Source: Escherichia phage A7_1
Direction: 5' to 3' (one strand)
Length of the DNA: 64,000 bases
Sequence record: OP795442
Positions 3,676-26,388 of the stretch are shown piece after piece. Positions within the stretch are counted from its first letter, which is position 1, and each line of letters starts with the position of its first letter. Under the pieces are notes generated by a model. It did not search any database. It worked only from the letters and a program-made list of their open reading frames with translations, and had not been told where the DNA came from. The translations under genes were made by a program, and so were the position numbers.

Positions 3676-4769
3676 TGATTAAGACCCTTATAGAGAAAGG
3701 TCGCCAGATTAAATCTCGCGGAATTGCTCTAACTCACCGAGATCAAGGCTACAGTGCGAATAACCGCCACGTAAGCCTCCTCACTAAATCTGACATTGAC
3801 CCTAGCAAACTTACGGTTGATGTTATCAAAGCCCTTGAGCAAGTTCAAGTAACTATCAGTATGGAAGAGTTTTTACGTCGCTTCTTCCACATGTATTGTG
3901 ATGATGCTGAGTTACTTACTAAGCTGCTGGGCTTCACAACTACCTTCGAAGACGAATATGCTGATAAAGATCCTGAAGACTTGGATTCTTATACGGCTGA
4001 TTACATCCGTCGTCATCAAGAATATCTCGATGAGAAGCTTGAAACAATCACTATCATCAAGAAAGCAAAAGAAGGTGCTGACCTTTCTCTCGTTGAACGC
4101 TTCGAGTTAATTAAGACTCGCAAGCAGTTTGAAGACGGATGTAAAGAATTGGGCCTTGACTTTGGTGACAATTCAGAATTACGCAAACCAGAAACTGGTG
4201 AAGTAGTTAAATCAGCTACTAAGCCTGAACCTGTAAGCTCCGCTGGAGCGACCACAACCATCAAGGAGACTCCTGTGGAAAAAGAAGTAGATGTAACCAA
4301 GTCCCAACAATTCATTGATCTGATGAAAGCTAATGAAGCGTTGATGGCTCAGGTTGAAGGTATGAAAGAAACCTTCACCGCTGCTCAAGAAATCGTTAAA
4401 GCTCAGGCTGTTGCAAAACGTGAAGTTGCCTTGAACAAAGCTGCAAGTTTTGGTTTTGTTGCTGATGACCAACGTGAAGCTGTTGCTGACCTGATCGAAG
4501 ACCCAGCTAAAGCATCTGTTGTTGCTGTGCTGGAAAAAGCTGCTGCTGCTCTTAAAGAGAAAGACGAAGCTCTCGTCGCTAAAGATGCAGAAATCGAAGA
4601 GATCAAAAAATCCTTCGCTGACGGCAAAGAAGTAGGTGCTGATGGTCAACTGACTGAAGTTGCTAAAGGCTCTGAAGACGCTCAGGCTCGTTTGAACCGA
4701 GTAATCGCAGAACGTGCAGCAGAGATCGCTAAGGCTGCTAACGGCAATGCTGAATTTATTAACGCCTAA
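3675..4769 (+). CDS. scaffolding protein
   Basis: 364 aa, Ala/Glu/Lys-rich with helical low-complexity C-terminal half; start overlaps upstream stop (ATGA); lies just upstream of capsid genes. Confidence 0.6.
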   Translation: MIKTLIEKGRQIKSRGIALTHRDQGYSANNRHVSLLTKSDIDPSKLTVDVIKALEQVQVTISMEEFLRRFFHMYCDDAELLTKLLGFTTTFEDEYADKDPEDLDSYTADYIRRHQEYLDEKLETITIIKKAKEGADLSLVERFELIKTRKQFEDGCKELGLDFGDNSELRKPETGEVVKSATKPEPVSSAGATTTIKETPVEKEVDVTKSQQFIDLMKANEALMAQVEGMKETFTAAQEIVKAQAVAKREVALNKAASFGFVADDQREAVADLIEDPAKASVVAVLEKAAAALKEKDEALVAKDAEIEEIKKSFADGKEVGADGQLTEVAKGSEDAQARLNRVIAERAAEIAKAANGNAEFINA

Positions 4770-4789
4770 TTATTGAGGAAACGAATAGA

Positions 4790-5221
4790 ATGGCTAAAGC
4801 ACATGTTGTAACTCTCGAAGGTAACTACTCTGATATCGTACTGGGCCGTGTTGTTGCATTTGGTGACACTGGTTGGAACTTTGAAGAAGTAGAAATGGAT
4901 TATACTGCTGATCTGGTCGCAGGTCTGCTGGTTAAAGCTGATGGTACTCCGGCTGCTGTTGCAGACGCTGCTGACGTTTACGGTGTTCTGGTTGACCGTA
5001 AAGTTCTGCCTGGTGTTACCAAGCATGACGGCGCTACCCCGATGGCTGGTGAGAAGCTTCCTATGACTATCGCTGTTCGTGGTCTGACCCTGAACGCAAC
5101 CAAACTGGTCTACGCTGATGGTACTGTAATTGACGCTGCTGGTAAACTGGCTCTGTCTAAAGCTGGAAACCAAGTGACTGACCGTGTAGTAGCTACCGAA
5201 TTCCTGGGCGCTGTCCTGTAA
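4790..5221 (+). CDS. putative head decoration / capsid-associated protein
   Basis: 143 aa ORF immediately upstream of the major capsid gene (position of lambda gpD); highly biased codon usage suggests high expression. Confidence 0.45.
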   Translation: MAKAHVVTLEGNYSDIVLGRVVAFGDTGWNFEEVEMDYTADLVAGLLVKADGTPAAVADAADVYGVLVDRKVLPGVTKHDGATPMAGEKLPMTIAVRGLTLNATKLVYADGTVIDAAGKLALSKAGNQVTDRVVATEFLGAVL

Positions 5222-5244
5222 CTTTTTCGAAGGAGAATATTTAA

Positions 5245-6240
5245 ATGCATAATGGTGATTTTCAAATCCTGGATTACACTGGCCTGATCTCTACTCTGCC
5301 GCGTGTTGATACCCTGCTTCAAAGCATGAACCTGTTCACTGAGAACTTTGGTCGTACCACTATCGCTAAAATCGAACGTCGTGATGACGGTGCTGGTCAG
5401 ATCAATGCTGTACAGCGTGGTAGCGTTCGTCAGCACCTGGGTAATGATCGTAAAAAGATCGTCAACCTGAATATCCCGTTCTTCCCTCTGGACCGTTCCA
5501 TTGACCGTGCTGATATCCAGAACTTCCGTGAATTCGGTACTGAAAATGCTCCGGCAACTGTTGAAGCTGAAGTAGCTCGTCACCTGGCTCGTATCCGTCG
5601 TAGTCATGCGGTTCTGAAATCCAAGGCAATGTACGCTGCTCTGAAAGGTACTTCCTGGTCGCCAAATGATCCGGTTTGTGATTACGACTACTACGATGTT
5701 TGGGGTGTAACCCAGCAGACTGCTGATGTTGACTTCACCTCTCTGGCTGTTGACCCGATTGAAGTGCTGGAAGCTGAAGCTCGTGCACATATCATCGATT
5801 ACGCAGGTGATCAAGGCGACAACTACGAGATCGTTGTTATGGCATCCCGTCAGTGGTTCTCTGCTCTGATTTCTCACCCGCAGGTAACTGGTGCATACTC
5901 TCAGTATCCGTCTACTCAGGAAATCCTGCGTCGTCGTCTGGGCGGTAATGCTAATAACCGTATCTTCGAACACAAGAACATCCTGTTCATCGAAGACATT
6001 TCCGGTAACATCCCTGCTGGTGAAGCATACATCTTCCCTCGTGGTATCGATCGTATGTTCGAAATCTATTACGCGCCGAGCGACACTCTGGAAGGTGCTA
6101 ACCAAGTAGCTCAGGAACTGTATGTATTCTTCAAAGAATCTCAGTACCTGCGTGAAGCGAAGATCGAATCTGAAACTTCCTTCCTGACTGTTAACAACCG
6201 TCCTGAACTGGTAGTTAAGTCTGTTGGTAAGTTTGAGTAA
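5245..6240 (+). CDS. major capsid protein (lambda E-like)
   Basis: 331 aa, strong RBS (AAGGAGA), strongly optimised codons, followed by a strong terminator; position after scaffold and decoration genes. Confidence 0.75.
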   Translation: MHNGDFQILDYTGLISTLPRVDTLLQSMNLFTENFGRTTIAKIERRDDGAGQINAVQRGSVRQHLGNDRKKIVNLNIPFFPLDRSIDRADIQNFREFGTENAPATVEAEVARHLARIRRSHAVLKSKAMYAALKGTSWSPNDPVCDYDYYDVWGVTQQTADVDFTSLAVDPIEVLEAEARAHIIDYAGDQGDNYEIVVMASRQWFSALISHPQVTGAYSQYPSTQEILRRRLGGNANNRIFEHKNILFIEDISGNIPAGEAYIFPRGIDRMFEIYYAPSDTLEGANQVAQELYVFFKESQYLREAKIESETSFLTVNNRPELVVKSVGKFE

Positions 6241-6256
6241 TCTTAATAACTAATTA

Positions 6257-6286
6257 AAGGTCACCTTCGGGTGGCCTTTTTTATTA
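6257..6286 (+). terminator. rho-independent terminator after capsid gene
   Basis: Hairpin AGGTCACC-TTCG-GGTGGCCT (one G-U pair) followed by TTTTTTATT. Confidence 0.75.
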
Positions 6287-6364
6287 TGCCTGTACAATTT
6301 AACCAAAATAGTGTACCATTATAAGATAGGCTATTAATCTAATCAATGACGAAGGAGTTATTTA

Positions 6365-6949
6365 ATGTCTAAGCAAACTCACTTGGAAGTCTTTAAGAGT
6401 GAATATCACATGCTCAAGTTCTTTGGTGAATATCTTGAAAAACTTGATGTAAACACCTCTGCACGTTTAGGTGCATTCCTTTATAGTTACGACGGTAAAC
6501 TGGTTCTTGCTCGTGGACTTTACGATTTCCTAACCCAAATGGAAAAGATGACCGCTCTCGGCATCGATACTATGGCTTCTGCACAAAAAGGTACAAGTTT
6601 CTTAGTGTTTTTCAAAGAAAAACCTAAAGACCCTTTAAAATTTCGATTAGATGTTAAGAAAATCGAGGCTGTTAAAGAAGCTATCGTTGCTGACACCCCG
6701 TCTAAGGTAATGGAAGAGTCTGTTCTTGTCAATACCAAAGTTGAAGAAGTAGAAGTAAAGGCAGAATCATCTGACCGTACTGAAGAAGAAAAAGCACAGA
6801 TCTTGACTAAAGCTGAAGAACTGCGTGATGACAGCAAAAAGGCTGCATCTAAGGCTGCATTGGAAGCTTTCGCTGTGGAATATGGTATTTCACTGAGCAA
6901 AGGCAAAACCTTTGATGGGATGCTTGAAGATTTAGCTGCTGCACTATAA
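6365..6949 (+). CDS. hypothetical acidic protein (head region)
   Basis: 194 aa ORF with AAGGAG RBS after the capsid terminator; Glu/Lys-rich C-terminal half. Confidence 0.6.
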   Translation: MSKQTHLEVFKSEYHMLKFFGEYLEKLDVNTSARLGAFLYSYDGKLVLARGLYDFLTQMEKMTALGIDTMASAQKGTSFLVFFKEKPKDPLKFRLDVKKIEAVKEAIVADTPSKVMEESVLVNTKVEEVEVKAESSDRTEEEKAQILTKAEELRDDSKKAASKAALEAFAVEYGISLSKGKTFDGMLEDLAAAL

Positions 6950-7002
6950 TCCCACCTCATGCCCCTGTTCAGGGGCTTAAAATCCCTAGGAGAATTTTAT
7001 AA

Positions 7003-10000
7003 ATGGCTGAATATAATGATAAGGTCGTGGAAGCATTCGTTACTGCCCCAGATCCTGTCGTAACTACCACTGGTGGTGGAGTTATTTTTGACGGTATTGA
7101 AACAGAAGATACTGTATCAACCCTGCTGATTGGTGATGGTACTGCATCCTCCCCTTTACAAGCGCAAGTCAAACTTTCTCGCCGTGCTGGTAACGCCCTG
7201 ACTATCGTTCAATCCGATACCGAGCAAGGCTTGTTTGCTACTGCCGGAGATGCTAAAGTTTCAGCTTCTCAAGTGAACATTGCAAAATACGTAACTGCGG
7301 AAGAAGCTGCTGCACAAGGCGATGCAGGTCTGGAAGGTATTTTGGTAGAGCCTGTCCATGCGACCACCACCGCAGTTGGCGATGCCTTGGAAATTACCGC
7401 AGATCCTTTGACGGCTAAAAAATCCCGCATTTCCCTGAAAGTTTCCCCTTCCGCAACCAACGCGTTATCTGTAGAGTCAGATGGATTGGCAGTTAAAGTC
7501 TCTCCTGCCGTTGACAACAGCCTGCAAGTCCGTGAAGGTGCACTTTACGTAGCTCCTGTTGGTGCTGATATTTCTCAAGACCCAGGTAACAAACTGGAAC
7601 AGCGTTCAGATGGACTGTTCGTAGAAACCATCAAAGGCGACAAAGGTGATCAGGGCGAGCAAGGACCAGAAGGTCCTCAAGGCCCAGCAGGGGAAGCTGG
7701 ACCTGCTGGACCACAGGGTGAAAAAGGCGACAAAGGCGATCAAGGTGAAGTCGGCCCTGCTGGCGCAACTGGCCCTGCTGGCCTGACTGGTGCAACTGGT
7801 CCTCGTGGTATAGAAGGACCTCGTGGCCCTGCTGGTATTGGTATTAATATCCTAGACACCCTTGCATCTGAAGACCAATTACCTTCTGTTGTTGATCTTT
7901 CGAATGGGGATACCTATGTAATAGGACAGAGTTTCTTTACCGTTATCACTGAAGGTGGTATCAAACAATGGAGAAACGTAGGTAACTTCGCTGGACCTGA
8001 AGGTCTTTCTGCATTTGAAGTTGCTGAAACCGCAGGCTTTGTTGGAACAGTTGATGACTGGTTGGCTACCCTTCGTGGTGCTGATGGAATCGGTCTGCAA
8101 TTACTCGGTTCTTTCCAACGAATTGAAGACCTTCCGGCAGAAGAGAACAACCCAGGCGATGCCTACATCATCCAAGAAAAGATGTATGTTTGGACTGGTG
8201 ATACAGATGGCTGGCAACCTGTAGGACAGATCGGTCCTGAAGGTCGTTCTGCTTATCAGGTCTGGCTGGCTAACGGGAACGTAGGTTCTCAGCGTGAATT
8301 CCTTGAATCACTGAAAGGTGAGAAAGGTGATACTGGCGATCAGGGTCCTCAGGGTATCCCAGGTGCAGATGGTAAAAATGCTAACGCCATTAATATCTTA
8401 GGTTCCGTTGCAGATCAGGCGAGTTTGCCAGAAGGTGCAGATGCAGGTGATGCTTACCTGATCGGTACTAACGTATTCGTTTCTGATGGTGCTGGCAACT
8501 GGCAAGACTTGGGATCTTTCCAAGGTCCGCAAGGTCCTACTGGTGCTAAAGGCGACAAGGGGGACAAAGGGGATAAAGGGGACAAAGGCGATAAAGGTGA
8601 TGACAACTATGCCATCGCAGTTGCTAACGGTTTCCAAGGATCAGTAAATGAATACCTTGCATCTATCAAGGGTGAGAAAGGTGACGTTGGTGCAACTGGC
8701 CCTCGTGGATTAGCTGGTCCACAAGGTGAACAAGGTCCTGTTGGTGCGGGTCTGAATATCCTTGGCTCAGTAGCTTCCGAAGACCAATTGCCTCAGACTG
8801 GTATTAGTGAAGGTGATGCTTATCTGATTGAAGCTGATCTTTATATCTTTACTGGCGGTCAGTGGACTAACGTTGGTAACATCAAAGGTCCCCAAGGGGA
8901 TGTAGGACCACAAGGTCCACAAGGTCCTATTGGTCTGACTGGGGCACAAGGACCGCAGGGTGCAACAGGGGCACAAGGTCCTGCTGGTCCCCAAGGTGAG
9001 ACTGGTCCACAAGGTGGTATTGGTCCACAGGGCGAGACTGGCGAGAAAGGTGACAAGGGCGATAAGGGTGATAAGGGTGATACTGGAATTGGTATCGTTG
9101 CTCGTGGTATTGTTGCAACTCAAGAAGCACTTCCTGCCGATGCCACCACTGGTGACTTCTACGTTGTAGAGTCTGAAGGTAATGGTTATGCTTGGGACGG
9201 CACTGCATGGGTACTGACTGGTCTTACTCGTGGACCTCAGGGTCTGAAGGGCGACAAAGGCGACACTGGTGAGAAAGGAGACAAAGGAGACAAAGGCGAC
9301 GCAGGTGATGCACTGAAGCTGAAAGGTTTGGTTGCAACCTCCGCTGAACTTCCTTCTACTGCTGAATTAGGTGACTTCTACGTAGCTGAAGACACTGGGA
9401 TCGGTTACGCTTGGGATGGCGTGGAATTCGTTTCTGCCGGAACCGTTAGAGGACCGCAAGGTGAAGTAGGGCCTCAGGGTGAAATTGGTCCTCAAGGACC
9501 GCAAGGCGAGAAGGGAGATGCTGGCGACCAAGGACCTCAAGGATTGGTCGGTGAAACAGGTGCAAAAGGTGATAAAGGGGATAAGGGTGACGTTGGCTCT
9601 GGTCTGATTCCGAGAGGAACTTTACCGTCTCAAGCAGACCTTCCTCAAACTGGTGAAGTTGGTGACTTCTACGTAGCTAACGATACTGGTATTGGATATG
9701 CTTTTGACGGAACTACATTCGTAGAAGCTGGCGTTGCCCGTGGTCCACAGGGTGAACAAGGACCTCAGGGTGAACAGGGACCTCAAGGTCTTAAAGGGGA
9801 TACTGGTGAAACAGGTGCTCAGGGACCTCAAGGTGCTCAAGGTGAGAAAGGTGATACCGGAGAACGTGGAGAGGTAGGTCCGCAAGGTGATCAGGGTCCG
9901 CAAGGTGAGCAAGGTCCTCAGGGTGATATCGGACCAGGTGTAGAGATCATTGGACGATTTGATACCTCTGATGAATTACCTTCCACGGGTACTTTGGGTC

Positions 10001-10803
10001 AAGGTTACCTTATCCAAGGCGACTTCTGGGGTTGGACTGGTGCAGCATACGAGAACTTGGGTCGTATTCAAGGTCCGGTTGGACCAGTAGGTCCTACGGG
10101 TGACCAAGGACCACAAGGCCCTGTCGGTAACAAAGGCGATAAAGGCGACCAAGGGACCCTTTGGGTAGTTTTTGCTCGTGCACCAATGGTGAGCGATGGT
10201 CGTGTTAACGACCTGTACCTCAACTCTTCCACTCTGGAATATTACCGTAAAACTTCCGCAACGAACTGGGCACTGCTCGGATTCTTAGGTGGTGGTAACG
10301 TGTATGACGCACCAGGGGACGGAAAGCTGTATGTCCGTACTGATGGTGGTTGGGTTGAATTACCTACCGCAGAAGTTCTGGAAGCACCTCGTGATGGTAA
10401 CCAATACGTCCGTAAAGACGGCGCTTGGACAACTGTTACAGTTCCTGTAACGGAAGCACCACTTGAAGGTGGATTCTACGTCCGTGAAAATGGTGCGTGG
10501 GTTAAACTGGATCAGTACGATTTACGTGTTGTTGCTTCAACTGGTGCAATTGATGCAAGCTCTGGTAATGCTTGGACTTTAGATGGTACAACCAACAAGT
10601 CCTTGACTATCACCGGATTGCCAGCAGGAAGGGCTAAAACCATAGTTTTACGATTCACTGGTAACGGTGGTCAGATTAACTGGGATAGCCAGATCGCTTG
10701 GTCTAACGGAACAGCACCTACTCTCGGGGCTACTCGCACTATCCTAACCTTGTTCTGGGATGGTGAGTTCCTGACGGGTACTCAAGCAATGACTATAGGT
10801 TAA
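7003..10803 (+). CDS. collagen-like repeat fiber protein
   Basis: 1266 aa with many Gly-X-Y runs (GPQGPQG, KGDKGD) alternating with about 8 copies of a module 'LP..G..GD.Y...W.G..W' and SAY...WL-SLKGEKGD motifs; C-terminal non-collagen domain. Confidence 0.85.
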   Translation: MAEYNDKVVEAFVTAPDPVVTTTGGGVIFDGIETEDTVSTLLIGDGTASSPLQAQVKLSRRAGNALTIVQSDTEQGLFATAGDAKVSASQVNIAKYVTAEEAAAQGDAGLEGILVEPVHATTTAVGDALEITADPLTAKKSRISLKVSPSATNALSVESDGLAVKVSPAVDNSLQVREGALYVAPVGADISQDPGNKLEQRSDGLFVETIKGDKGDQGEQGPEGPQGPAGEAGPAGPQGEKGDKGDQGEVGPAGATGPAGLTGATGPRGIEGPRGPAGIGINILDTLASEDQLPSVVDLSNGDTYVIGQSFFTVITEGGIKQWRNVGNFAGPEGLSAFEVAETAGFVGTVDDWLATLRGADGIGLQLLGSFQRIEDLPAEENNPGDAYIIQEKMYVWTGDTDGWQPVGQIGPEGRSAYQVWLANGNVGSQREFLESLKGEKGDTGDQGPQGIPGADGKNANAINILGSVADQASLPEGADAGDAYLIGTNVFVSDGAGNWQDLGSFQGPQGPTGAKGDKGDKGDKGDKGDKGDDNYAIAVANGFQGSVNEYLASIKGEKGDVGATGPRGLAGPQGEQGPVGAGLNILGSVASEDQLPQTGISEGDAYLIEADLYIFTGGQWTNVGNIKGPQGDVGPQGPQGPIGLTGAQGPQGATGAQGPAGPQGETGPQGGIGPQGETGEKGDKGDKGDKGDTGIGIVARGIVATQEALPADATTGDFYVVESEGNGYAWDGTAWVLTGLTRGPQGLKGDKGDTGEKGDKGDKGDAGDALKLKGLVATSAELPSTAELGDFYVAEDTGIGYAWDGVEFVSAGTVRGPQGEVGPQGEIGPQGPQGEKGDAGDQGPQGLVGETGAKGDKGDKGDVGSGLIPRGTLPSQADLPQTGEVGDFYVANDTGIGYAFDGTTFVEAGVARGPQGEQGPQGEQGPQGLKGDTGETGAQGPQGAQGEKGDTGERGEVGPQGDQGPQGEQGPQGDIGPGVEIIGRFDTSDELPSTGTLGQGYLIQGDFWGWTGAAYENLGRIQGPVGPVGPTGDQGPQGPVGNKGDKGDQGTLWVVFARAPMVSDGRVNDLYLNSSTLEYYRKTSATNWALLGFLGGGNVYDAPGDGKLYVRTDGGWVELPTAEVLEAPRDGNQYVRKDGAWTTVTVPVTEAPLEGGFYVRENGAWVKLDQYDLRVVASTGAIDASSGNAWTLDGTTNKSLTITGLPAGRAKTIVLRFTGNGGQINWDSQIAWSNGTAPTLGATRTILTLFWDGEFLTGTQAMTIG
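8548..8601 (+). repeat. tandem 9-bp repeat encoding (KGD)6
   Basis: aaa-ggN-gaY repeated six times in frame inside the collagen-like gene; similar shorter arrays at 7725-7745, 9043-9081 and 9250-9300. Confidence 0.8.
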
Positions 10804-10812
10804 TTTTTAAAT

Positions 10813-10834
10813 GGGGGCTTAGGCCCCCTCTTTC
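10813..10834 (+). terminator. rho-independent terminator
   Basis: GGGGGC-TTAG-GCCCCC hairpin followed by TCTTTC; directly after the stop of the 1266 aa gene. Confidence 0.55.
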
Positions 10835-10848
10835 AGAAAGGAGTTAAT

Positions 10849-11484
10849 ATGGTGATCGATAAGATTTATGGCTGGACCCCCATGATCCGCATGTCTGACA
10901 TGCGTTATCCGGTATACCTGGCCGACTACCGTGCTGAATATCCTAACGTATCTATTGGTAGCTTTGTTTACGCTGTCGGTATGGCTGAAGTTGGATATCA
11001 TGCGGTTTATGATGTACCGATGCCGCAAGGTGATGTTGTTACGGAAGGACTTCCAGAATTACGAGAAGACGGTTTCTGGTACAGAACTTGGAACGTTAGA
11101 GATTTCACCGAGCAAGAGATTGCCGATAATCTTATCCGTGAAAAAGAGCAACGCATCAATGAAGCTCGAATGGTTCTAGATAATGAAAGATCTGAGGGTG
11201 TTTTTGTATCCGGTAAAAGATATCAATCCGACGCTCAAGCTTTTACTTATTACAGTTCTATCTCTGCTGTTGCTAAAGATTCACCTGAAGGTGTTTTTCA
11301 CTTAGTGACCTCTGACAATCAGGTGGAGGAATTTTTTGGTGATGACGTTATTGTCCACATCAAAGAAATTCAAAAAGTAAATGCAAAAATTTACGATGAG
11401 TTTGCTAAAATTGTAAAAGTTATCCGCGAAGCAAAATCCCCTGAAGAAATCCCTCAAGTTCCTCCCTCGTTCCAAAATATCTAA
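10849..11484 (+). CDS. hypothetical protein (between collagen-like genes)
   Basis: 211 aa ORF with AAAGGAG RBS; possibly a fiber assembly factor by position only. Confidence 0.55.
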   Translation: MVIDKIYGWTPMIRMSDMRYPVYLADYRAEYPNVSIGSFVYAVGMAEVGYHAVYDVPMPQGDVVTEGLPELREDGFWYRTWNVRDFTEQEIADNLIREKEQRINEARMVLDNERSEGVFVSGKRYQSDAQAFTYYSSISAVAKDSPEGVFHLVTSDNQVEEFFGDDVIVHIKEIQKVNAKIYDEFAKIVKVIREAKSPEEIPQVPPSFQNI

Positions 11485-11516
11485 TTAATCTCCTAACGTA
11501 ACAGAAGGATGTAAAA

Positions 11517-13100
11517 ATGAGTACACTTGCTCGTGGTATTGCAGGAGAACAAAGAGGCGTATTTTATGGATATGCTCTTTACGATCTGGAACAAAAAAGA
11601 AAGATAGCCTTTAAAGATTTAACTAAGGGTGACTCAGGGGCAAAGGGCGATAAGGGTGATCCTGGTCCAGAAGGTCCACAAGGTGATAAAGGAGATACCG
11701 GAGAGCAAGGCCCTGTAGGACCTCAAGGTCCTGCTGGTGCAACAGGGCCACAAGGTGTGTCTGGTGAAAGAGGACCTCAAGGTCCCGAAGGTCCTGTAGG
11801 ACCTCAAGGTCCAATTGGTCCCGAAGGCCCAGTAGGGCCAATTGGCCCCCAAGGTCCAGAAGGTCCTAAAGGAGAGCAAGGTGACCAAGGCCCTTCTGGA
11901 TCTCAAGGCCCTCAAGGATTAAAAGGGGATACAGGGCCACAAGGACCTCAAGGTCCCGTTGGACCCAGAGGAGAGACAGGTGCAACAGGACCTGTTGGAC
12001 CTAAAGGGGACACAGGCCCAACAGGTCCAAAAGGAGAAACGGGTGAACAGGGACCCATTGGTCCGCAAGGACCTAAGGGTGATACAGGGCCTGTGGGTCC
12101 TGCAAGCTTAACCTTCAGAGGTTTCTATGAACCTCTTGAAGAATACAACGAAAAGGATACAGTAGCTTATAATGGTTCTACTTATTTTGCGTTAAGAACC
12201 AGTACAGGAGCAACACCGGATATTTCTCCCGATGACTGGGCATTACTTGCAGCTGAAGGTGCAGTTGGACCACAAGGACCTATGGGACCAGAGGGTCCGC
12301 AAGGTATCGCTGGTGCTCAAGGTCAGGAAGGCCCTGTAGGACCGCAAGGTGAACAGGGTCCGGTTGGACCTGTTGGCCCACAAGGCCCACAAGGTCCTGC
12401 GGGTCAGGAAGGAATAGAAGGCCCTCAGGGACCTCAAGGAGAAGAAGGCCCTATGGGACCTCAGGGACCACAAGGGATTGTAGGACCAACAGGTCCACAA
12501 GGCCCTCAAGGCCCCAAAGGGGACACTGGTGCAGTTGGACCACAAGGTCCTCAAGGCCAACAAGGTCTTGATGGTCCACAAGGCCCTGCTGGTCCGCAAG
12601 GCGAAAGAGGTGTTACTGGACTAACCGGACCCCAAGGTCCCAAGGGTGATATCGGCCCTGTGGGTCCGGCTGGCCCTCAAGGTAAGGATGGTAATTCTTA
12701 CACTATCTACAACTGGGGCAACATATCAACGGGCTATGGTGAGATGGTAATACCTGGTGTTACTAACACAGTATTCAGAGTGAGACGAGTAGGAACCACA
12801 TTAGAATACAGTGTACTTAGTAAAGGTGGTGCGAATAGATACCTTGACTTCCATACCATAATTCCAGCCCCCTCTACAGGGGGCGCTGTAATTATCCAAT
12901 CAGGAAATACAACATTGACATCCTCCAGCTCTTTAAATGTTGTTACATCTGCACCTCCTGGTCTTGGTTTTCGACCAATATTCATCTCTTTAAAAGAGTG
13001 GGGAGATAGGGCAATAGTAACCATAGAGGTTTTCCACACAGGTAGAAGTGGAGATGCCAGTTACCCAATACATGTTCGTATGCTAACGACGAAGTATTGA
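11517..13100 (+). CDS. collagen-like protein (second fiber protein)
   Basis: 527 aa; about 300 residues of uninterrupted Gly-X-Y (GPQGP, GPVGP) in two blocks plus a C-terminal globular domain of about 140 aa. Confidence 0.8.
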
Positions 13101-13104
13101 CATG

Positions 13105-13134
13105 AAAGCCACCTTCGGGTGGCTTTATTTTTAT
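13105..13134 (+). terminator. rho-independent terminator
   Basis: AAAGCCACC-TTCG-GGTGGCTTT hairpin followed by ATTTTTAT. Confidence 0.75.
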
Positions 13135-13157
13135 ACAAATGACTTTCTTTTAATTTT

Positions 13158-13712
13158 GTGATAACATGTTTTAATACACTGGAGGAATATATGACTGATG
13201 AAGAAGTAGTACAACTTGTCCGTAACTTTTTAGGCGGTCTTACTGAAGATGAAATGCCTGATAGCATGATTCTGTTTTTCTATAATAAATGGAAGGTCTG
13301 TTATGATTTAGAAAACAGACCTGATCAATTCTCCATTATTCTTTATAACACCGTATTAGATTGTGTCCGCTGGCTTCTGGTTCAAAGCGTTTCAAGTGGT
13401 GCTTCTGGCATCCGTGAAAGATTTGAGAAGGTAGGTGATGAGACGATATCTGTTAAGTATGGAGATAGCTCAGGTAATTGGCAAAATTTCTTGGATTACC
13501 TGCTTGAACATCCCGAATATATAGATCCTTGTTTAAAAGAGGCAAACGGGAATGGTTCAGGTCTTGTCATCATTGGCGGCGTAAGAAGAAATGAAGTTAA
13601 CCGTGTTCGTAGAAACCCAAATTCTCATAACGGTTTCATGGAGCAAGGTATCTATCCCGCACCAGGTACAAGATCCAGTGTAAGAAAGCGTAATCCGTGG
13701 ATGGTTAAGTAA
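13158..13712 (+). CDS. hypothetical protein (head completion / connector region)
   Basis: ORF after terminator; the more likely start is ATG 13191 after GGAGG (MTDEEVVQ...). Confidence 0.55.
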   Translation: MITCFNTLEEYMTDEEVVQLVRNFLGGLTEDEMPDSMILFFYNKWKVCYDLENRPDQFSIILYNTVLDCVRWLLVQSVSSGASGIRERFEKVGDETISVKYGDSSGNWQNFLDYLLEHPEYIDPCLKEANGNGSGLVIIGGVRRNEVNRVRRNPNSHNGFMEQGIYPAPGTRSSVRKRNPWMVK

Positions 13713-13775
13713 AGCTTTGAGTTTGTTGCTTTTGCTCATCTATTGTGGTAAAATAACTTTCATGGAGAAATAACC

Positions 13776-14237
13776 GTGAAGAAAACATCGACAATTGATT
13801 TTTCTGTCATGGATCGCTATTTCGACCAACTCTCAGATTTAGAAACAAAAGAGATTGAGGTGGGCTTCTTTGATGAGGCTCATTACTCTGGTCTAAATAT
13901 GGCGACTCTCGCAGCGATTCACGAACTAGGATGGAACAATCTTCCTGAACGTAACTTCATGCTTTCCACATCGATCCATTATCGAGGTGGACTTATCAAG
14001 AACCTCAAAAAACTCAATGATGATTTACTGAAAGGTAAGCCATATGACCCTGTGCTTAAGAAAATAGGTAAAGACTACGCTGACAGCATTCGTTTTACGA
14101 TTGACCAAGGTACGTTCTCTAATAACCGAGTGTCTACAGCATGGGCGAGCTATAAAGGGTTCAGTGATGCAATGATCCATTACGGCGATCTTTCAGATTC
14201 AGCGAAGTTTAAGATTGTCCCTCTTACGAAAGACTAA
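13776..14237 (+). CDS. hypothetical protein (neck / tail completion region)
   Basis: 153 aa, GTG start after GGAGA RBS; position between head and tail genes. Confidence 0.5.
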   Translation: MKKTSTIDFSVMDRYFDQLSDLETKEIEVGFFDEAHYSGLNMATLAAIHELGWNNLPERNFMLSTSIHYRGGLIKNLKKLNDDLLKGKPYDPVLKKIGKDYADSIRFTIDQGTFSNNRVSTAWASYKGFSDAMIHYGDLSDSAKFKIVPLTKD

Positions 14238-14246
14238 GGAGGCATC

Positions 14247-14687
14247 ATGTCTCGTGGCTATTTATTGTTAAGCCGTCGCAATCAGCTTATTCCTCGTATC
14301 GAGGTTGAAGGTCGCAGACGCGCTTATAAAAAGGTTGATCTGGATGACCCGTTTGATAACGGTGGTCTGGAGATTGAATATACACCATTCACGGCTGTTG
14401 AATGTGTCATTCAACCAATCAGAGGCAAAGCGCTTCGTGACCAGAACAACCAACTGACTACTGCTGGTGAGGAAGATTATGATTCCTACACTGTGTATTC
14501 AGAAACTGTATTGTATCGTGCACAAGAAGGAACGGATAAACTTTCTGATCAATTGTGGCTTCCCAATTCTGTTGGTGAGAATAGTTGGTTTACAGTAATG
14601 AAAGCTGACCGTTACCCAAGTGCAGGCAACATGAGATATCGTTACTATCTGATCGCTGTACCTGTTGGAACAGAGGGTGGATTATAA
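14247..14687 (+). CDS. hypothetical protein (neck / tail completion region)
   Basis: 146 aa, AGGAGG RBS; stop overlaps the next start. Confidence 0.55.
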   Translation: MSRGYLLLSRRNQLIPRIEVEGRRRAYKKVDLDDPFDNGGLEIEYTPFTAVECVIQPIRGKALRDQNNQLTTAGEEDYDSYTVYSETVLYRAQEGTDKLSDQLWLPNSVGENSWFTVMKADRYPSAGNMRYRYYLIAVPVGTEGGL

Positions 14688-15346
14688 TGGATCAATTGCC
14701 TAATGAGTTTACAAACTCCGACGAGATTATGGGCAATCTCACAAGGGTTATCGGTCGTCTCTTGAAAGACGTAACCACTTATAAGGTGGTTGAAGCTGGT
14801 GAAACAATCCCTAAAGTTGAGGGACCATTCATCCTCGTAGACCTCTCAGATTTAAGCCCTCTCGATTGGGAAACAAATCAGATTGTTGAGAATGGTATTA
14901 CACACACTGTTCACAACTACACTGCAACATACACACTCACCGCATATCGTGGAAAACCTCACTGGGCATTGACTCGTTTTCATCAGGCATTGAGCCTTGC
15001 ATGGATAAGAGATAAATACTTCCCTGTCGGATCACCTTATGCTTACTCGTCCACTTCTTCTATTGCAAGATTAAGAATTCCTCTTAATGAGCAATATTAT
15101 GAAAACAGGGCAAGGGTACTGATTACCTTTAACGTTACGTTCGTTGAAAGTGACTTTGGTCAGTTTGAAAATATCGAGAGCATCATTATCGACACCAGTG
15201 TTTCAGATCCTTCTGGAAACAAGATCGAAAATGAAGCCATTGTAGATATCAACGTCAAACCAGGTGGTGATGGTCCTAGTATCCCGCCAGAACCGGAGAT
15301 TCCTTTCACTTACATCGATACTATCGTTACTGTAAACGAGAAGTAA
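14687..15346 (+). CDS. hypothetical protein (tail completion region)
   Basis: 219 aa; ATGA overlap with the upstream gene. Confidence 0.55.
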   Translation: MDQLPNEFTNSDEIMGNLTRVIGRLLKDVTTYKVVEAGETIPKVEGPFILVDLSDLSPLDWETNQIVENGITHTVHNYTATYTLTAYRGKPHWALTRFHQALSLAWIRDKYFPVGSPYAYSSTSSIARLRIPLNEQYYENRARVLITFNVTFVESDFGQFENIESIIIDTSVSDPSGNKIENEAIVDINVKPGGDGPSIPPEPEIPFTYIDTIVTVNEK

Positions 15347-15458
15347 ATCCGGTTATTGATAGGCACACGCTTATCAGTGACAAATGAGGGGCTTTTAGCC
15401 CCTAATCAATTGGCACTTCCGGTGCTAGTCAATAATCGTCTAGAAGCAGAGGATAAAC

Positions 15459-16874
15459 ATGGCTTATGAAGATAAGGTAGTTGACGTCGAGGTAACGCTT
15501 GGCACTCAACCTATTGATACCGTAGGGTTTGAAACCCCAATGTTCTTAGCAGTACACAATAATTTCCCTGAACGTCTCCGTCTGTACGGATCTGTGGAAA
15601 GTCTGGTTGGTGATGGATTTGCAGTTGGGTCCGCAGCATATCAATTCGCATCCAATGCATTTGGTGGGTCTTTTGCCCCACAACTGGTAGCAATTGGTCG
15701 TATGTCCATGTCTGGTTCTCGAATCGACTTCACAGGCACTACCAATACCGAGCGTGTTGTGGTAAACATTACTATCAATAAGGTGGTAAAGGCAATAACT
15801 ATCACGATCAACCCTGGAAACACCCCTGGTCAGATCGCAACTGCTCTTGCAGAAGGTATTAACAATGATGTAGATTTGGCTGGTCGCGTTACTGCAACTG
15901 TTGAAGGCAGTACAGTCGTAGTTGTGCAATCCGCAGAGATTATCAGTGTAGGTAAAGGCGAAGGTAGCTACAAGATTGTAAACACCTCTGTTGAAACTGT
16001 TGCAACTGTTCTTCCGCAGGTACTTGCTGAAAACCACAACTGGTACTTCCTGTCTCACGAACAACGTTCTGATGCAGATATCGTTGCAGCGGCTGAATTT
16101 GCACAAGCTAATTACAAACTGCACGTATATAACTCCAGTGACAGCGATGCTCTGGCAGCAGCTAACCAAAGCGCTTCTGTGTTTGACACTCTGAAAGCTC
16201 TGGGTTACAACTCTTTAGGGACTTACGACAAAGAAGCGGATGTAGAATTCACCGAAGGTTCTGTTATCGGCGCAATGGCTGCTAACGATCCTTCTTACGG
16301 TGACTCTATTCACCTGAAGACAATGCCTGGCATGAAGCCTTCTACGATTTCCGAAACTCAGCGTAGCAACGCTTGGGGACGTAACGCAAACATCTATCGT
16401 GCAATGTACGGCACTAACAGCTACATCGAAGGGCGTACCTCCAGCGGTCAGTATGTTGACGTTATTCGTTTCTCCCATTGGCTGAAATTCCGCATGGAAG
16501 AATCTGTATTCGGATACATGAAGCGTCGTTCTGATCAAGGCCAGTCCATGAAGATGAGTGATGAAGACCTTCCGGTTCTGCGATCTATCCTGTTTAATAA
16601 CCCAATCAACATCGGTATTCGTAATGGTGGCATTCTGACTGGTTATGACACAGTGAACCGTGTTAGCTATGATCCGATTATCACCATTCCTCGCCGTGCT
16701 GAAATCCCAAGTAATGACTTAGCTAACCGTATTCTGCGTGATGTTAAAGTTGAAGTGGTTTACAACAACTCCCTGCACTACGTTAAAATTCGCGCTGCTG
16801 TTGTTCTGGATCGTCCGCAAAACACGACCCAAAGCACTCAGACTCCTTTCACTAACTCTACTGTAGGGGTGTAA
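15459..16874 (+). CDS. putative tail sheath protein
   Basis: 471 aa ORF immediately upstream of a 160 aa tube-sized gene, chaperone pair and tape measure (myovirus order); biased codon usage. Confidence 0.6.
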   Translation: MAYEDKVVDVEVTLGTQPIDTVGFETPMFLAVHNNFPERLRLYGSVESLVGDGFAVGSAAYQFASNAFGGSFAPQLVAIGRMSMSGSRIDFTGTTNTERVVVNITINKVVKAITITINPGNTPGQIATALAEGINNDVDLAGRVTATVEGSTVVVVQSAEIISVGKGEGSYKIVNTSVETVATVLPQVLAENHNWYFLSHEQRSDADIVAAAEFAQANYKLHVYNSSDSDALAAANQSASVFDTLKALGYNSLGTYDKEADVEFTEGSVIGAMAANDPSYGDSIHLKTMPGMKPSTISETQRSNAWGRNANIYRAMYGTNSYIEGRTSSGQYVDVIRFSHWLKFRMEESVFGYMKRRSDQGQSMKMSDEDLPVLRSILFNNPINIGIRNGGILTGYDTVNRVSYDPIITIPRRAEIPSNDLANRILRDVKVEVVYNNSLHYVKIRAAVVLDRPQNTTQSTQTPFTNSTVGV

Positions 16875-16877
16875 TAG

Positions 16878-17360
16878 ATGGCACTGAATCCTAAGTTAAT
16901 TAGTCTCCAGGCATACGACCCAGCGAAGGTTCTGATCTTCATCGGCGGTCAACGTGTTTCTGGATTTGCCGCTGATACGAAAGTTGTTGTTTCTCGTAAC
17001 AACGATAACATTACCCCGCTGTCTGGTGTTGATGGTGAAGTAAGTTCGGCTATCGTTCGCGACAACTCTGGTGTAGTAACTATCTCCTTGCAGAATACTT
17101 CTGTATGGAACGGTTATCTTTCCCAATGGCAGTTGCAAGCCCGTCTGACCGGACTTGTTTACTTCCCAATCCAGATTGAAGGTTCTCAGGGTCTGTCCTT
17201 GAACACCTTTGGTTGGATTCAACGTCAACCAGACCTGACCTATGGATCTGAAGTAGGGCAGATGGACTGGGAAATCGGCGTTGTCGATGCACAACTGAGT
17301 GCTGACCAGATTCAGGGTGTTGCTGCCGGAATCGGTGGAATCCTCGGTCTGGATCAATAA
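16878..17360 (+). CDS. putative tail tube protein
   Basis: 160 aa ORF between the sheath-sized gene and the chaperone pair. Confidence 0.55.
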   Translation: MALNPKLISLQAYDPAKVLIFIGGQRVSGFAADTKVVVSRNNDNITPLSGVDGEVSSAIVRDNSGVVTISLQNTSVWNGYLSQWQLQARLTGLVYFPIQIEGSQGLSLNTFGWIQRQPDLTYGSEVGQMDWEIGVVDAQLSADQIQGVAAGIGGILGLDQ

Positions 17361-17911: not shown

Positions 17912-18177
17912 GGCCGCTGAGTACGGTGGAAAGGGCCTTGGAGTATTGTAGGAAAAACTCCAGTCTGAAATGGTATGACTATCTTTATTTCCGTGTCATG
18001 GAGAAATTCAAGGGAGTTAATGAACTTTCTATTGAAAGTGGGGACATGGAAGACCTTCTTAAGAAAAATGAATATATAGATATTCAAGAATATTTGGAAG
18101 GTGTTCAAGAGAAAGAGAAGGAATACGAACGCCAGCGAATGGAACAACAAGAGGCCCAGTTAAAACGGAGAAAGTAA
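17441..18177 (+). CDS. tail assembly chaperone frameshift fusion (GT-like), predicted
   Basis: Frame 0 up to 17820 joined by -1 slip to the frame of ORF 17926-18177; about 245 aa. Conserved G/GT arrangement upstream of tape measure genes. Confidence 0.45.
17815..17821 (+). other. putative -1 programmed frameshift slippery site (TTTTTTC)
   Basis: X-XXY-YYZ heptamer in the chaperone frame (codons TTT-TTC = FF); the -1 frame stays open from 17821 to the stop at 18177. Confidence 0.5.
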
Positions 18178-18185
18178 ATAAATAG

Positions 18186-18220
18186 GGCTGGAGTCGAAAG
18201 ACTCTGGCCTTTATTTTTAT
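18186..18220 (+). terminator. rho-independent terminator (attenuator before tape measure)
   Basis: GGCTGGAGTC-GAAA-GACTCTGGCC hairpin (two G-U pairs) followed by TTTATTTTTATT. Confidence 0.55.
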
Positions 18221-18234
18221 TATGAGGAGTCAAA

Positions 18235-20658
18235 ATGGCTGTTGAAGTAATTGCAACAACAAAGAACCGTGTCATATTTGAAACTGACAAAGGTTCCTAT
18301 CGAAAAGCTCGTGAAGAGATTCGAAAACTCTCTAACGAATGGAAAAAGGCTTCAACAGAGGCTACTGCTGCCGGAAAGAATTCTCCTGCTGAGGCTTATA
18401 AACAATCTGCCCGTGAAATGCGATTAGTCAGTAAACGTTTGGAAGAAACTCGCAAACGTGAAGAGAAGAAAGCGACAGATTATCGTATTGCTCTGGCAAA
18501 GAAAGAAGCCAAGGCAAAGGAAGCGATCCAAAAGGTTTCTGCTGCAAAAATACGACAACAGGTTAAAAGCCTGACGGCTGCATCCCCTGGTTCTGCTGAG
18601 ATGAGAAAGTTCTATCAGGAACAGGAGAAAGCTGCCCGTGCTGCTGCAAGATCTGCAAACCGTACAGCGACACCTTTACCGCCTTTCAACATCCAACGTG
18701 TGGAAGCTGCAAATCAATTATTATCTCGCGGTAACAGAGAGCCAGGGTCAGGTATTGTTGGAGATCCTAATAGCCGATTCAACCCTGATTTAATTGCTGC
18801 ACAAAACAGAGCGATGCAACGTAGTTCTCGTATCAAAGAGAGAATGCAGAAGCAACAAACTCAAGAACAGGAACGTGAACGTGTCCGCGCTGCTCGTGCT
18901 GCTGCCCGTATTGATGATGTTACAGCACAACAACGTATTCGTCTATCCTCTCGATATGGTCGTGGTTATGCAGGTGCTTTGGGTCGTGATTCAGAGGGTC
19001 GTGGGATTGAAGATCTTAATAGACAATTCCGTGCGGGTACATTATCATCTGGACAATATCGACAAAGTGTTCAGGCACTCGAAAGACAATTTCGCGCCGC
19101 ACAATCAAGTGCTGGGTCTTTCTCTTCTACGTTGAGAGATATTCGTTCTAACTTGGTAAGTGCTACGGCTGCATATGGTGTTTTCTCCGCAGGTGCATCA
19201 ATCACTCGTCAAGGTCAATTCTTCGAAGGTATTAATGCAACCTCCTTGCTGATCTCTGATTCAGCAGAAGAGGCTGGTCAGCGTGTTAAGTTTGTTCGTG
19301 ACGAAGCATACCGTTTAGGTTTGGATCTGAAAACTGCATCGCAGGGATTTACCCAGTTAGCGATCTCTGCTGATGGTGTTATTAGTAAATCTCAAACAGA
19401 CGAATTATTTAGTGCATTTTCTGAATATTCCACCGCACTTCAGGTCGATCCCGTAAGATATCAGCGTGGCATTACAGCAATTCAACAGATCCTTGGTAAA
19501 GGTCAAGTAATGGCTGAAGAACTAAAGGGTCAGTTGGCTGAAGCAATTCCTGGTTCTTTACAGGTATTCTTGAAAGCAACTCAAGAAGCATTCGGCGACA
19601 CCTCTATCGACATTGCAAAATTGTTGAAGTTGATGGAAGATGGTGAATTGAAAGCCTCCAAGATCATACCCCTGGTTGGAAAATACTATGCAGAAGCTGC
19701 TAATAAGGGTGGCGCACTGGATAAAGCTTTAGAAAGTAACCGTGTTGCTTACCAGCGTTTAACTCAGACTTTTGCAGAGTTTCAAAACAGAATATTCCAA
19801 GGTGGCTTTGGTGAACAACTGACAAGAGTTTTCAATAACTTAGCTACAATCCTATCAAGCAATGGTAACGTTGCAAGCACCATCGGTAGATTCTTCGGTA
19901 ACGTAATTGAAGGATTTACAGACATGGTTCTTGAAATACATGATAACCTTGTCCTTTTGGATCGTGTGGTGTCTTATTACTTCAAGAAAATAGGTGTTGA
20001 AGGTGATACTCTTCGTCAAGTGTTTGATTGGGGTTCTTATCTCCTTGGTATCGGATTGTTCCTCGGCGGTCTAACTAAAGTGTTTAATATCCTAGCTAAG
20101 ATTGCAGGATTAAAAGGTGCACTTAAGGAGATTCGTGGAACCCTTGGTGGAGATTTAGCTACGGGTGGAAAAACCACAACTGGTGCAAACACTACAGCCT
20201 CTGGTGGCGCAACTACCCCAGGTAAGACAAGTGTAGCTGGAAGATTCAGTCAACTTGGTAAGCTTGGTAAGCTTTTTGGCCTTGGTACGCTTTATTCAGC
20301 AGGGTCAGAAATCAATGACCGCTTTATCCAAAGTGGAGAGAGCCGATTGGCTGGAGCAGGGCTTGACGCAACAGCTTTCCAGCAGCAATATGGTGTAACT
20401 CCACAACCTGTCGGGTTAACTGATGTGTTCAGAGAGTTGTTTGGTGGCTCTCGTGACATAACTGTAGATCCTAACACTATCTCGACTCCATCTGGTATTC
20501 GCCCTAGCGGATTTCCTCTGGAAACTCCAGCAGCACCACCTGAAGGTAAGATCACCGTTGAGATCAAGAGTGGAGAGATTCGTCAATATATCCGTGCAAT
20601 TGTGGATGAAGAGAACGGATTCAATATCAACCTGCTCACTCAGGGTGGTAACCAATAA
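18235..20658 (+). CDS. tail tape measure protein
   Basis: 807 aa, Ala/Arg/Gln-rich helical N-terminal region and Gly-rich hydrophobic segment; directly downstream of the frameshifted chaperone pair. Confidence 0.8.
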   Translation: MAVEVIATTKNRVIFETDKGSYRKAREEIRKLSNEWKKASTEATAAGKNSPAEAYKQSAREMRLVSKRLEETRKREEKKATDYRIALAKKEAKAKEAIQKVSAAKIRQQVKSLTAASPGSAEMRKFYQEQEKAARAAARSANRTATPLPPFNIQRVEAANQLLSRGNREPGSGIVGDPNSRFNPDLIAAQNRAMQRSSRIKERMQKQQTQEQERERVRAARAAARIDDVTAQQRIRLSSRYGRGYAGALGRDSEGRGIEDLNRQFRAGTLSSGQYRQSVQALERQFRAAQSSAGSFSSTLRDIRSNLVSATAAYGVFSAGASITRQGQFFEGINATSLLISDSAEEAGQRVKFVRDEAYRLGLDLKTASQGFTQLAISADGVISKSQTDELFSAFSEYSTALQVDPVRYQRGITAIQQILGKGQVMAEELKGQLAEAIPGSLQVFLKATQEAFGDTSIDIAKLLKLMEDGELKASKIIPLVGKYYAEAANKGGALDKALESNRVAYQRLTQTFAEFQNRIFQGGFGEQLTRVFNNLATILSSNGNVASTIGRFFGNVIEGFTDMVLEIHDNLVLLDRVVSYYFKKIGVEGDTLRQVFDWGSYLLGIGLFLGGLTKVFNILAKIAGLKGALKEIRGTLGGDLATGGKTTTGANTTASGGATTPGKTSVAGRFSQLGKLGKLFGLGTLYSAGSEINDRFIQSGESRLAGAGLDATAFQQQYGVTPQPVGLTDVFRELFGGSRDITVDPNTISTPSGIRPSGFPLETPAAPPEGKITVEIKSGEIRQYIRAIVDEENGFNINLLTQGGNQ

Positions 20659-26376: not shown

Positions 26377-26388
26377 TGGGAGAATTTA

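Follow-up and report, generated by a model that had tools for sequence, protein, structure and literature searches.

The gp12 protein of phage SPP1 is a collagen-like trimer located at the centres of the capsid hexamers (Zairi et al. 2014, PMC4175352; reviewed in PMC7602432), and is thought to mediate adhesion rather than capsid stability. Its auxiliary gene adjoins that of the major capsid protein, and gp12 occupies a quasi-six-fold site with a mismatch of symmetry. In the capsid of Pectobacterium phage phiTE, a Certrevirus whose virion is covered almost completely by a cryo-electron microscopy atlas, there is unmodelled density at the hexamer centres, named the 'Pagoda' protein, that is without symmetry at the interface with the capsid protein and was putatively assigned to gp217 from mass-spectrometry abundance alone (PMC11972413). 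The phiTE maps contain no model of gp215, gp216 or gp217 (PMC11972413). Hydroxyproline-free collagens flanked by non-collagen trimerization domains are found in the tail fibres EPclA-D of Escherichia coli prophages (Ghosh et al. 2012, PMC3368898) and in BclA. Here we analyse two collagen-like fibre genes within a stretch of 64,000 nucleotides (nt) of Escherichia phage A7_1 (sequence record OP795442; the window, from which all coordinates are taken, with all features on the plus strand). They encode proteins of 1266 amino acids (aa; 7003..10803) and 527 aa (11517..13100), termed the large and small proteins, and the open reading frames (ORFs) are exactly those of the original prediction made from the DNA sequence.

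We give an even chance to the overall explanation that these are structural fibres of a Septuagintavirus myophage, the small one being anchored on the capsid. By megablast, positions 4700-16900 of the window are 99.3% identical to Escherichia phage A5-4 over 100% of the query, 99.5% identical to A73 and W70 over 87% of the query, and 91-93% identical to UPEC06 and vB_EcoM-LTH01 (LTH01). All five are Vequintavirinae, and the window belongs to Septuagintavirus, a genus comprising A5-4, A73, W70 and A7-1 (PMC11370258). It pairs the 1266-aa form of the large gene with a small gene of the A5-4 type.

The two proteins very probably form collagen-like fibres borne by the virion. This had been predicted, and agrees with the published mass spectrometry of W70 virions, which detects the orthologues of both; their absence from purified virions, by which the prediction would have fallen, is thus contradicted in print. 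In the electrospray ionization tandem mass spectrometry (PMC11370258, Table 2) W70_131 (129 kDa) is at the top of the table with 2032 spectra, W70_129 (53 kDa, an allele of the small gene) has 728, and W70_130 (24 kDa, corresponding to the 211-aa protein encoded between the two fibre genes) has 114; W70_129 and W70_131 are also visible on sodium dodecyl sulphate-polyacrylamide gel electrophoresis (PMC11370258). W70_131 is the large protein, and the gene copy, which is identical in A73 and W70, differs from that of the window at 8 of 3801 nt. The orthologue table of the same study equates W70_131 and W70_130 with CB7_10 and CB7_11 and with gp068 and gp067 of PVP-SE1, leaves rV5 without a counterpart, and lists no orthologue of W70_129 outside the genus (PMC11370258). 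CB7_10 and CB7_11 were also detected in virions of the Certrevirus CB7 (PMC7344957). The authors labelled all three W70 proteins only as 'virion structural protein' of unknown role (PMC11370258). The proteins are thus already deposited, annotated and detected in virions, so that the basic finding is not new; in kind this is an ordinary collagen-like phage fibre system. What goes beyond the annotation is the putative anchoring of the small fibre on the head, an unnamed node domain and the behaviour of the small gene as a cassette.

The small protein begins with an anchor (aa 1-37; 11517..11627) that is common to the gp217 family of phiTE. Alignment of the small-fibre family with the gp217 family gives an hhalign probability of 92.3% (E = 5.5e-7 over 34 columns), and pairwise BLASTP gives E = 0.009. 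The small gene and phiTE_217 also occupy the identical genomic slot, located between the homologue of the 211-aa gene and the head-completion gene, and before a terminator. Since both anchor and slot match, the small protein is taken as a capsid-anchored head fibre, an assignment made from sequence that we put slightly below even odds. The asymmetric Pagoda density would fit a trimer placed on a six-fold site, as expected by analogy with SPP1 gp12. The likeness to gp12 is one of analogy only, with no sequence homology claimed. There are also clear differences. The phiTE gp217 is just 164 aa in length and is without collagen, while compared with SPP1 gp12 the window protein is far larger (527 aa, ~95 nm) and has a CBM-like node as well as a variable tip. 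The short proteins CR3_gp010 and KaOmega gp10 (103-107 aa) are close to gp12 in size and organization; in these, as in a metagenomic relative, the anchor is joined to ~10 Gly-X-Y triplets and a small beta domain. Long paralogues with the architecture of the window's small protein are also encoded by CR3 and by the metagenomic phage. In the metagenomic phage L007 (Logan SRR24146890 contig) three consecutive genes, encoding 99, 500 and 446 aa, have the gp217-type anchor.

The same anchor-collagen-CBM-collagen-tip protein is matched by tblastn in three genera of the Tevenvirinae (VR7, Kosakonia 305 and KIT01). In all three the collagen gene lies between gene 24 and inh, in the head-gene region. 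A Hoc-like gene is next and co-directional in VR7 and Kosakonia 305, and in KIT01 an unannotated gene is followed by hoc. Searches of the literature on the VR7 collagen-like gene, and on collagen together with foldon in phage cryo-electron microscopy, found nothing relevant, and the KEC4 and Jab papers contain no discussion of these fibre proteins.

In the window the fibre genes are part of a unit of four genes, encoding the Inh-like protein of 194 aa (starting at 6365), the large protein (7003), the 211-aa protein (10849) and the small protein (11517). This is preceded by the genes for terminase, portal, protease, head decoration (4790) and the major capsid protein (5245), and is followed by those for head completion (13158), neck (13776) and sheath (15459). 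The unit is bracketed by two strong intrinsic terminators. The first follows the major capsid gene (6256..6279; a 10-bp stem with 5 GC pairs, and a T-run) and the second closes the unit (13105..13126). They have the same loop and inner stem, CACCTTCGGGTG, inside a stem of 9-10 bp, and phiTE has annotated terminators at both equivalent places, the second of these coming after phiTE_217. The Inh-like protein (6365..6949), the first of the unit, matches phrog_3259, and also phrog_1051 'inhibitor of protease' with E = 1.6e-5; its orthologue in L007 carries Pfam Phage_Inh_N, and it has no entry in the W70 virion protein list (PMC11370258, Table 2). The baseplate and tail-fibre genes are located at ~21-33 kb, and neither collagen gene is encoded within that cluster, both lying at 7-13 kb between the capsid and neck genes. 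The GC skew changes sign near 34 kb, coincident with the switch from plus-strand structural to minus-strand genes in the A73 annotation.

This location bears upon an alternative that we think rather unlikely, in which the two proteins are tail fibres of the conventional kind, attached on or close to the baseplate. The large one would be a third fibre of the phiTE type, with the 211-aa protein as its chaperone or as a tip adhesin, and the small protein would serve as a side tail fibre. The terminator-bracketed unit adjoins the capsid gene and is 13-19 kb upstream of the baseplate/tail-fibre cluster, and the small protein shares a homologous anchor with gp217, a putative capsid protein, the same gene being found near hoc in the T4-like phages. 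Moreover, the phiTE baseplate reconstructions (~3.3 Å, C6 component) allowed attachment models for only two fibres (PMC11972413), and the tail fibres visible in CB7 are ~42 nm, not 95-150 nm. Both GenBank and PHROG annotate the two proteins as tail fibres. The PHROG matches, many of them labelled 'tail fiber', are driven largely by the collagen repeats; most of the 70 matches cover the collagen-and-module region, the top one (phrog_3904) covering most of the N-terminal region also. Collagen motifs are, however, common in prophage tail fibres (PMC3368898), and a fibre gene with a small downstream partner is the classic tail-fibre/chaperone layout, here conserved in jumbo phages. In phiTE the long tail fibre touches a 'third putative fiber' near the tail (PMC11972413). 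The only other annotated 'tail fiber protein' there is phiTE_215, the homologue of the large protein, and by elimination among the annotated fibres the third fibre is probably gp215.

The annotations and the phiTE third fibre also count against placing the small protein on the capsid, as do several further points. The equation of gp217 with the Pagoda protein derives solely from its abundance in mass spectrometry (PMC11972413). The shared 35-aa motif is found alongside major capsid proteins that are unrelated to each other (T4 gp23-type and lambda gpE-type), and could be an N-terminal trimerization cap rather than a docking element. Negative-stain transmission electron microscopy of W70 (PMC11370258) and of CB7 describes 'thin flexible tail fibres' that form a bundle, and heads of clear hexagonal outline, with no head fibres reported. 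Abundance cannot decide the site of attachment. Copy number estimated from the W70 spectral counts per kDa was rejected since the portal (12 copies) scores above the sheath, and the counts are therefore not quantitative.

The remainder of the small protein is mostly collagen. There are two Gly-X-Y runs of 53 and 49 triplets, making up 58% of the length (about 60% had been estimated from the sequence) and equivalent to ~88 nm. The match to Pfam Collagen (PF01391) is 160.9 bits (E = 6e-48), where the cut-off is 27.2. Between the two rods lies a node of 51 aa (aa 197-247; 12105..12257), which matches Pfam CBM_5_12 (PF02839) with E = 3.6e-4; its 20.9 bits fall short of the cut-off, 26.2. The seven members of the family that were tested all match CBM_5_12 and no other family, and one of them passes the cut-off with 32.8 bits. 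The node is described as CBM5/12-like on this basis, its membership being putative. The protein ends in a C-terminal tip (aa 395-527, 133 aa; 12699..13097) that is hypervariable in a protein alignment of six isolates, and for which there is no Pfam match.

The small gene differs strongly between near-identical isolates. Compared with A73 and W70 it is ~58% identical in nucleotide sequence or unalignable, within flanking DNA that is >99% identical. At the protein level the anchor can still be recognized, as can the collagen rods and the CBM-like node, and the tips of the window, A73, UPEC06 and LTH01 are essentially unrelated. The small gene (11517..13100) is thus a cassette that is swapped between closely related phages. 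Only one further structural locus within the first 35 kb is strongly divergent from A73, namely the 3' part of the short-tail-fibre gene (26386-28020, orthologous to W70_112 and A73_126), which is 82-84% identical over ~27.0-28.0 kb in a module that is otherwise ~99-100% identical. Patches of the tape-measure gene (18001-20000) are 94-95% identical to A73 where their neighbours are >99%, and would seem to be mosaic on a smaller scale. On two clinical strains, plaque formation distinguishes A5-4 and A7-1 from A73 and W70, and with them the two species of the genus (PMC11370258). This difference could be due to the small gene, to the 3' part of the short-tail-fibre gene, or to both; as the C-terminus of the short tail fibre differs too, attribution to the small gene alone was rejected.

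The large protein is a segmented collagen (Pfam Collagen, 150.8 bits, E = 9e-45, with the same cut-off). Its N-terminal region (aa 1-211; 7003..7635) starts with a conserved anchor of ~66 aa, and continues as N.L....DGL.V repeats that read from the sequence as shaft-like. By tblastn, conservation of aa 1-66 extends to PVP-SE1, 4MG and GAP31, and that of all 211 residues to Certrevirus. The collinear orthologue in phiTE is phiTE_215, with 52.8% identity over this region and the same modules; it has 7 modules and 2 foldons compared with 8 modules and 3 foldons in the window. The N-terminal region is followed by nine uninterrupted Gly-X-Y runs of 23, 7, 9, 9, 23, 9, 17, 22 and 10 triplets, a sum of 129 triplets that is 31% of the length and would extend for ~111 nm as a triple helix. 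Shuffling either protein 1000 times gave no run longer than 9 triplets, so that the regularity observed lies far outside chance. In the large protein 37% of the residues at X and Y are charged, and GDK is the second commonest triplet. KGD and KGE triplets are said, from the work of Persikov et al. 2005 and Mohs et al. 2007, to stabilize hydroxyproline-free helices by inter-chain ion pairs. The SAY...WL motifs that had been noted in the sequence are present three times, with the form SAY..WL..LKG and starting at aa 335, 415 and 535 (8005-8088, 8245-8316 and 8605-8670). The protein P0030 has many tandem copies of this motif.

The collagen segments alternate with a module, of which there are eight good copies of 44-50 aa (~45 aa) and a degenerate ninth, in keeping with the eight or so originally counted. 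The eight lie within 7843..10071, each between Gly-X-Y segments, with coordinates M1 7843-7992, M2 8089-8232, M3 8386-8523, M4 8752-8886, M5 9094-9231, M6 9313-9450, M7 9604-9741 and M8 9940-10071; the ninth comprises aa 1054-1097 (10162..10293). The consensus is L.ILG.V.....LP.....GD.Y.I.....Y.W.G..W...G, and in the alignment of the eight copies L, P, G, Y, G and G positions are invariant. A profile made from the eight copies matched 4,837 protein clusters at E <= 0.001 in a search of 1.84 billion representative proteins (744 at E <= 1e-10 and 91 at E <= 1e-30), with up to 15 matched stretches within one protein. In all 22 of the matched sequences that were inspected, from the 4,837, the module sits between Gly-X-Y runs. 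No Pfam family covers the module. There are weak signals for DUF2793 and Mtd_N only, and no sequence match above cut-off to these beta-prism families. The module is a widespread, unnamed inter-collagen domain that is beyond existing annotation. Two of the profile matches (P0118 and P0163) have hydrophobic leader-like N-termini and look cellular rather than phage, from which the node domain may extend beyond phage fibres.

The structure of the module, the prediction of which had been proposed as a check, was modelled with AlphaFold2 on residues 977-1266. Word-indexed searches for homologues of the large protein gave only 3 matches for the C-terminal 213 aa and none for the M1-S2 region, leading to shallow alignments, and the paralogous modules were added as extra alignment rows. 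M8 is predicted with confidence as a compact four-stranded domain that includes a short helical turn (predicted local distance difference test, pLDDT, 85-96), and the degenerate ninth module has moderate values (67-69). In the model M8 is a small beta domain resembling the trimerization domains of the multiplexin collagens XV and XVIII (PDB 3n3f and 9bnb). The phage module shares no sequence similarity with these domains, of which it is thus most likely an analogue, and it differs in recurring eight times inside one chain, between collagen segments. The modules most likely act as nodes of trimerization and registration, from which each short collagen segment, lacking hydroxyproline, would be nucleated and kept in register.

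Beyond the ninth module are three tandem repeats of the foldon of T4 fibritin (aa 1098-1172; 10294..10518), the 27-aa beta-hairpin trimerization unit of that protein, followed by a C-terminal beta-rich tip of 94 aa (aa 1173-1266; 10519..10800). The foldons match Pfam Fibritin_C (PF07921) in three stretches, with 49.4 bits for the C-terminal fragment and 41.7 for the whole protein (cut-off 21), and also PDB foldon entries. The three repeats are identical to the T4 foldon at 14/27, 13/27 and 11/27 residues. They are predicted as low-confidence hairpins, as expected for a model of a monomer. The number of copies varies among homologues, with three in the window and P0002, two in phiTE, P0001 and P0003, and one in RAY. 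The tip is predicted to be all-beta (pLDDT 66-86); it is 98-99% identical at the protein level in UPEC06 and LTH01, and is found also in RAY gp302 and EL gp156. When PDB sequences were searched with the two fibre proteins, the matches were confined to collagens, BclA and foldon fusions. The match to BclA is in the collagen part, and both BclA and EPclA-D differ from the window proteins in their flanking domains, in their tail-fibre or exosporium context, and in lacking the module-foldon-tip arrangement. The collagen repeats of both proteins and the three foldon repeats suggest that each is a homotrimer, the structures predicted being those of monomers. The three foldon repeats, the C-terminal tips, the CBM5/12-like node and the 211-aa virion protein are features beyond the original prediction.

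The presence of true foldon repeats raises the question of whether the large protein might form neck whiskers or a collar like T4 fibritin (wac), placed at the head-tail connector and aiding deployment of the tail fibres. The gene unit is immediately upstream of the head-completion and neck genes, and in T4 wac adjoins genes 13 and 14. In the window, however, the Fibritin_C match is confined to profile positions 53-92 of 93, which is the foldon part only, and the large protein has no coiled-coil segments. In place of a coiled-coil rod ending with a foldon at the extreme C-terminus, the rod is collagen and the foldons are internal and tandem with a 94-aa domain following; the large protein thus carries foldon units but is no fibritin. 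In addition the phiTE connector was solved at 3.1-3.3 Å and is called narrow in that paper, the text of which contains neither 'collar' nor 'whisker' (PMC11972413). A whisker role is accordingly very improbable.

It is also unlikely, if somewhat less so, that both fibres decorate the capsid, with the large protein a second head fibre and the 211-aa protein its capsid adaptor. The genes do all share one transcription unit with the Inh-like head protein and the gp217-type gene, and W70_131 has the highest spectral count in the virion, but such counts are no measure of quantity. Foldseek matches the C-terminal model best to the capsid spike gp52 of Pa223 (E = 7.6e-3, TM 0.23). This match is not significant, reflecting generic features of beta fibres, and it was rejected as a clue to location. 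In phiTE there is only one unassigned density on the capsid, already attributed to gp217, and the fold of the 211-aa protein matches no capsid protein. The large fibre could be located on the capsid, as sharing the head-side transcription unit would favour, or could be the 'third fibre' near the tail hinted at in phiTE.

The 211-aa protein (10849..11484) is encoded directly downstream of the large gene, and its homologues W70_130 and CB7_11 are present in virions. Homologues lie directly downstream of a homologous fibre gene in phiTE (phiTE_216), in CR3 and in the Erwinia jumbo phage RAY, and in EL gp154 is downstream of gp156 with one gene between. The structure is predicted by AlphaFold2 with a pLDDT of 91.8; it has no fold match in the PDB (Foldseek, best E = 0.2), and hence gives no clue to location. 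In LTH01 the protein is 65.6% identical where the adjacent large-fibre tip is 98% identical, so the partner does not co-vary with that tip. It may be a retained assembly factor, a tip adhesin or a docking adaptor.

The gene pair has relatives in jumbo phages. RAY gp302 and gp301, and EL gp156 and gp154, belong to a fibre family with modules, the SAY motif, foldon and tip together with a homologue of the 211-aa protein. The large protein matches RAY gp302 by BLASTP with E = 7e-57, over modules, SAY motif, one foldon and the tip. Unlike the window, these have other N-termini and the pair is not beside the capsid gene, and EL gp156 has modules and SAY motifs but almost no collagen (33 triplets). 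The loci are L012 3860-7708 (Erwinia phage RAY) and L013 2261-7651 (Pseudomonas phage EL). In L007 (6659-10918) the large fibre is split into ORFs of 1112 aa and 305 aa, and a long stretch without collagen takes the place of its middle; the junction of the split is similar to the small beta domain with which CR3_gp010 ends.

The collagen-coding repeats were originally predicted to include perfect 9-bp arrays that could vary fibre length by slippage. In-frame KGD runs do exist at the protein level, but the example given, at 8548..8601, is imperfect at the nucleotide level. Its six KGD units (AAAGGCGAC, AAGGGGGAC, AAAGGGGAT, AAAGGGGAC, AAAGGCGAT and AAAGGTGAT) all differ from their neighbours by synonymous changes (82% matches in Tandem Repeats Finder). 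Across the two genes together, adjacent identical units are found only at 9064-9081 and 9274-9291. The former are the last two of four KGD units at 9046..9081, and from these two identical AAGGGTGAT units the large gene of A5-4 has exactly one 9-bp unit deleted. This is the sole length change of the large gene among the isolates compared. The gene is 3801 nt in the window, A73, W70, UPEC06 (92.6% nt identity) and LTH01 (88.7%), and all nine collagen segments are identical in length in the window, UPEC06 and LTH01. A single deletion, at a perfect duplication, indicates that slippage is real where the repeat is perfect, but rare; with lengths otherwise constant and the arrays synonymously scrambled, variation of fibre length by this route is weakly supported. 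Segment lengths of 23, 7, 9 and 9 triplets (the first four) and 10 (the last) are kept in the Certreviruses phiTE, CR3 and KaOmega. Across Septuagintavirus and Certrevirus the first four, in 7636-8751 of the window, are kept exactly at ~50% protein identity, and this invariance points to a constraint on length or register in the proximal half of the large fibre. The large gene is a recombination mosaic, in which blocks of 100% nt identity adjoin blocks of 73-86%. Exchange of the complete small gene and mosaic recombination thus account for most of the variation between isolates, repeat slippage being a minor contributor.

Returning to the explanation with a capsid-anchored small fibre, the following architecture may be proposed. 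The large fibre would be a segmented rod of ~150 nm, starting with the N-terminal anchor and shaft region and continuing as nine hydroxyproline-free collagen segments rich in KGD/KGE ion-pair triplets, with a module between each pair. It would terminate in the three foldon repeats and the conserved beta tip, with the conserved 24-kDa virion partner encoded adjacently. The small fibre would comprise the 37-aa anchor, a 45-nm collagen rod, the CBM5/12-like node, a 42-nm rod and the hypervariable 133-aa tip. The anchor would dock onto the centre of the capsid hexamer, the principle of SPP1 gp12 scaled up, and the tip would act as an exchangeable adhesin. The adhesin role, the function of the node, the capsid anchoring and the trimeric state are what we infer from the data above.

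A broader and more doubtful proposal is that the 35-aa anchor common to Vequintavirinae (Septuagintavirus and Certrevirus) and three genera of Tevenvirinae docks exchangeable trimeric collagen head fibres on hexamer centres, with the large fibre in the same apparatus. If so, the capsid would bear up to ~120 adhesin fibres of ~95 nm, the swappable tips of which would influence host range or environmental adhesion, and the 150-nm large fibre, with its eight collagen-registration nodes, would be part of the same capsid-borne apparatus. The small protein would give a concrete and testable identity to the hexamer-centre density of phiTE, for which gp217 is the only candidate, and the design of phages of this kind for altered host range might have to take the capsid into account. 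The module is a plausible natural registration domain for hydroxyproline-free collagens, and may serve in designed collagen materials. The small gene is a candidate determinant of host range alongside the short tail fibre.

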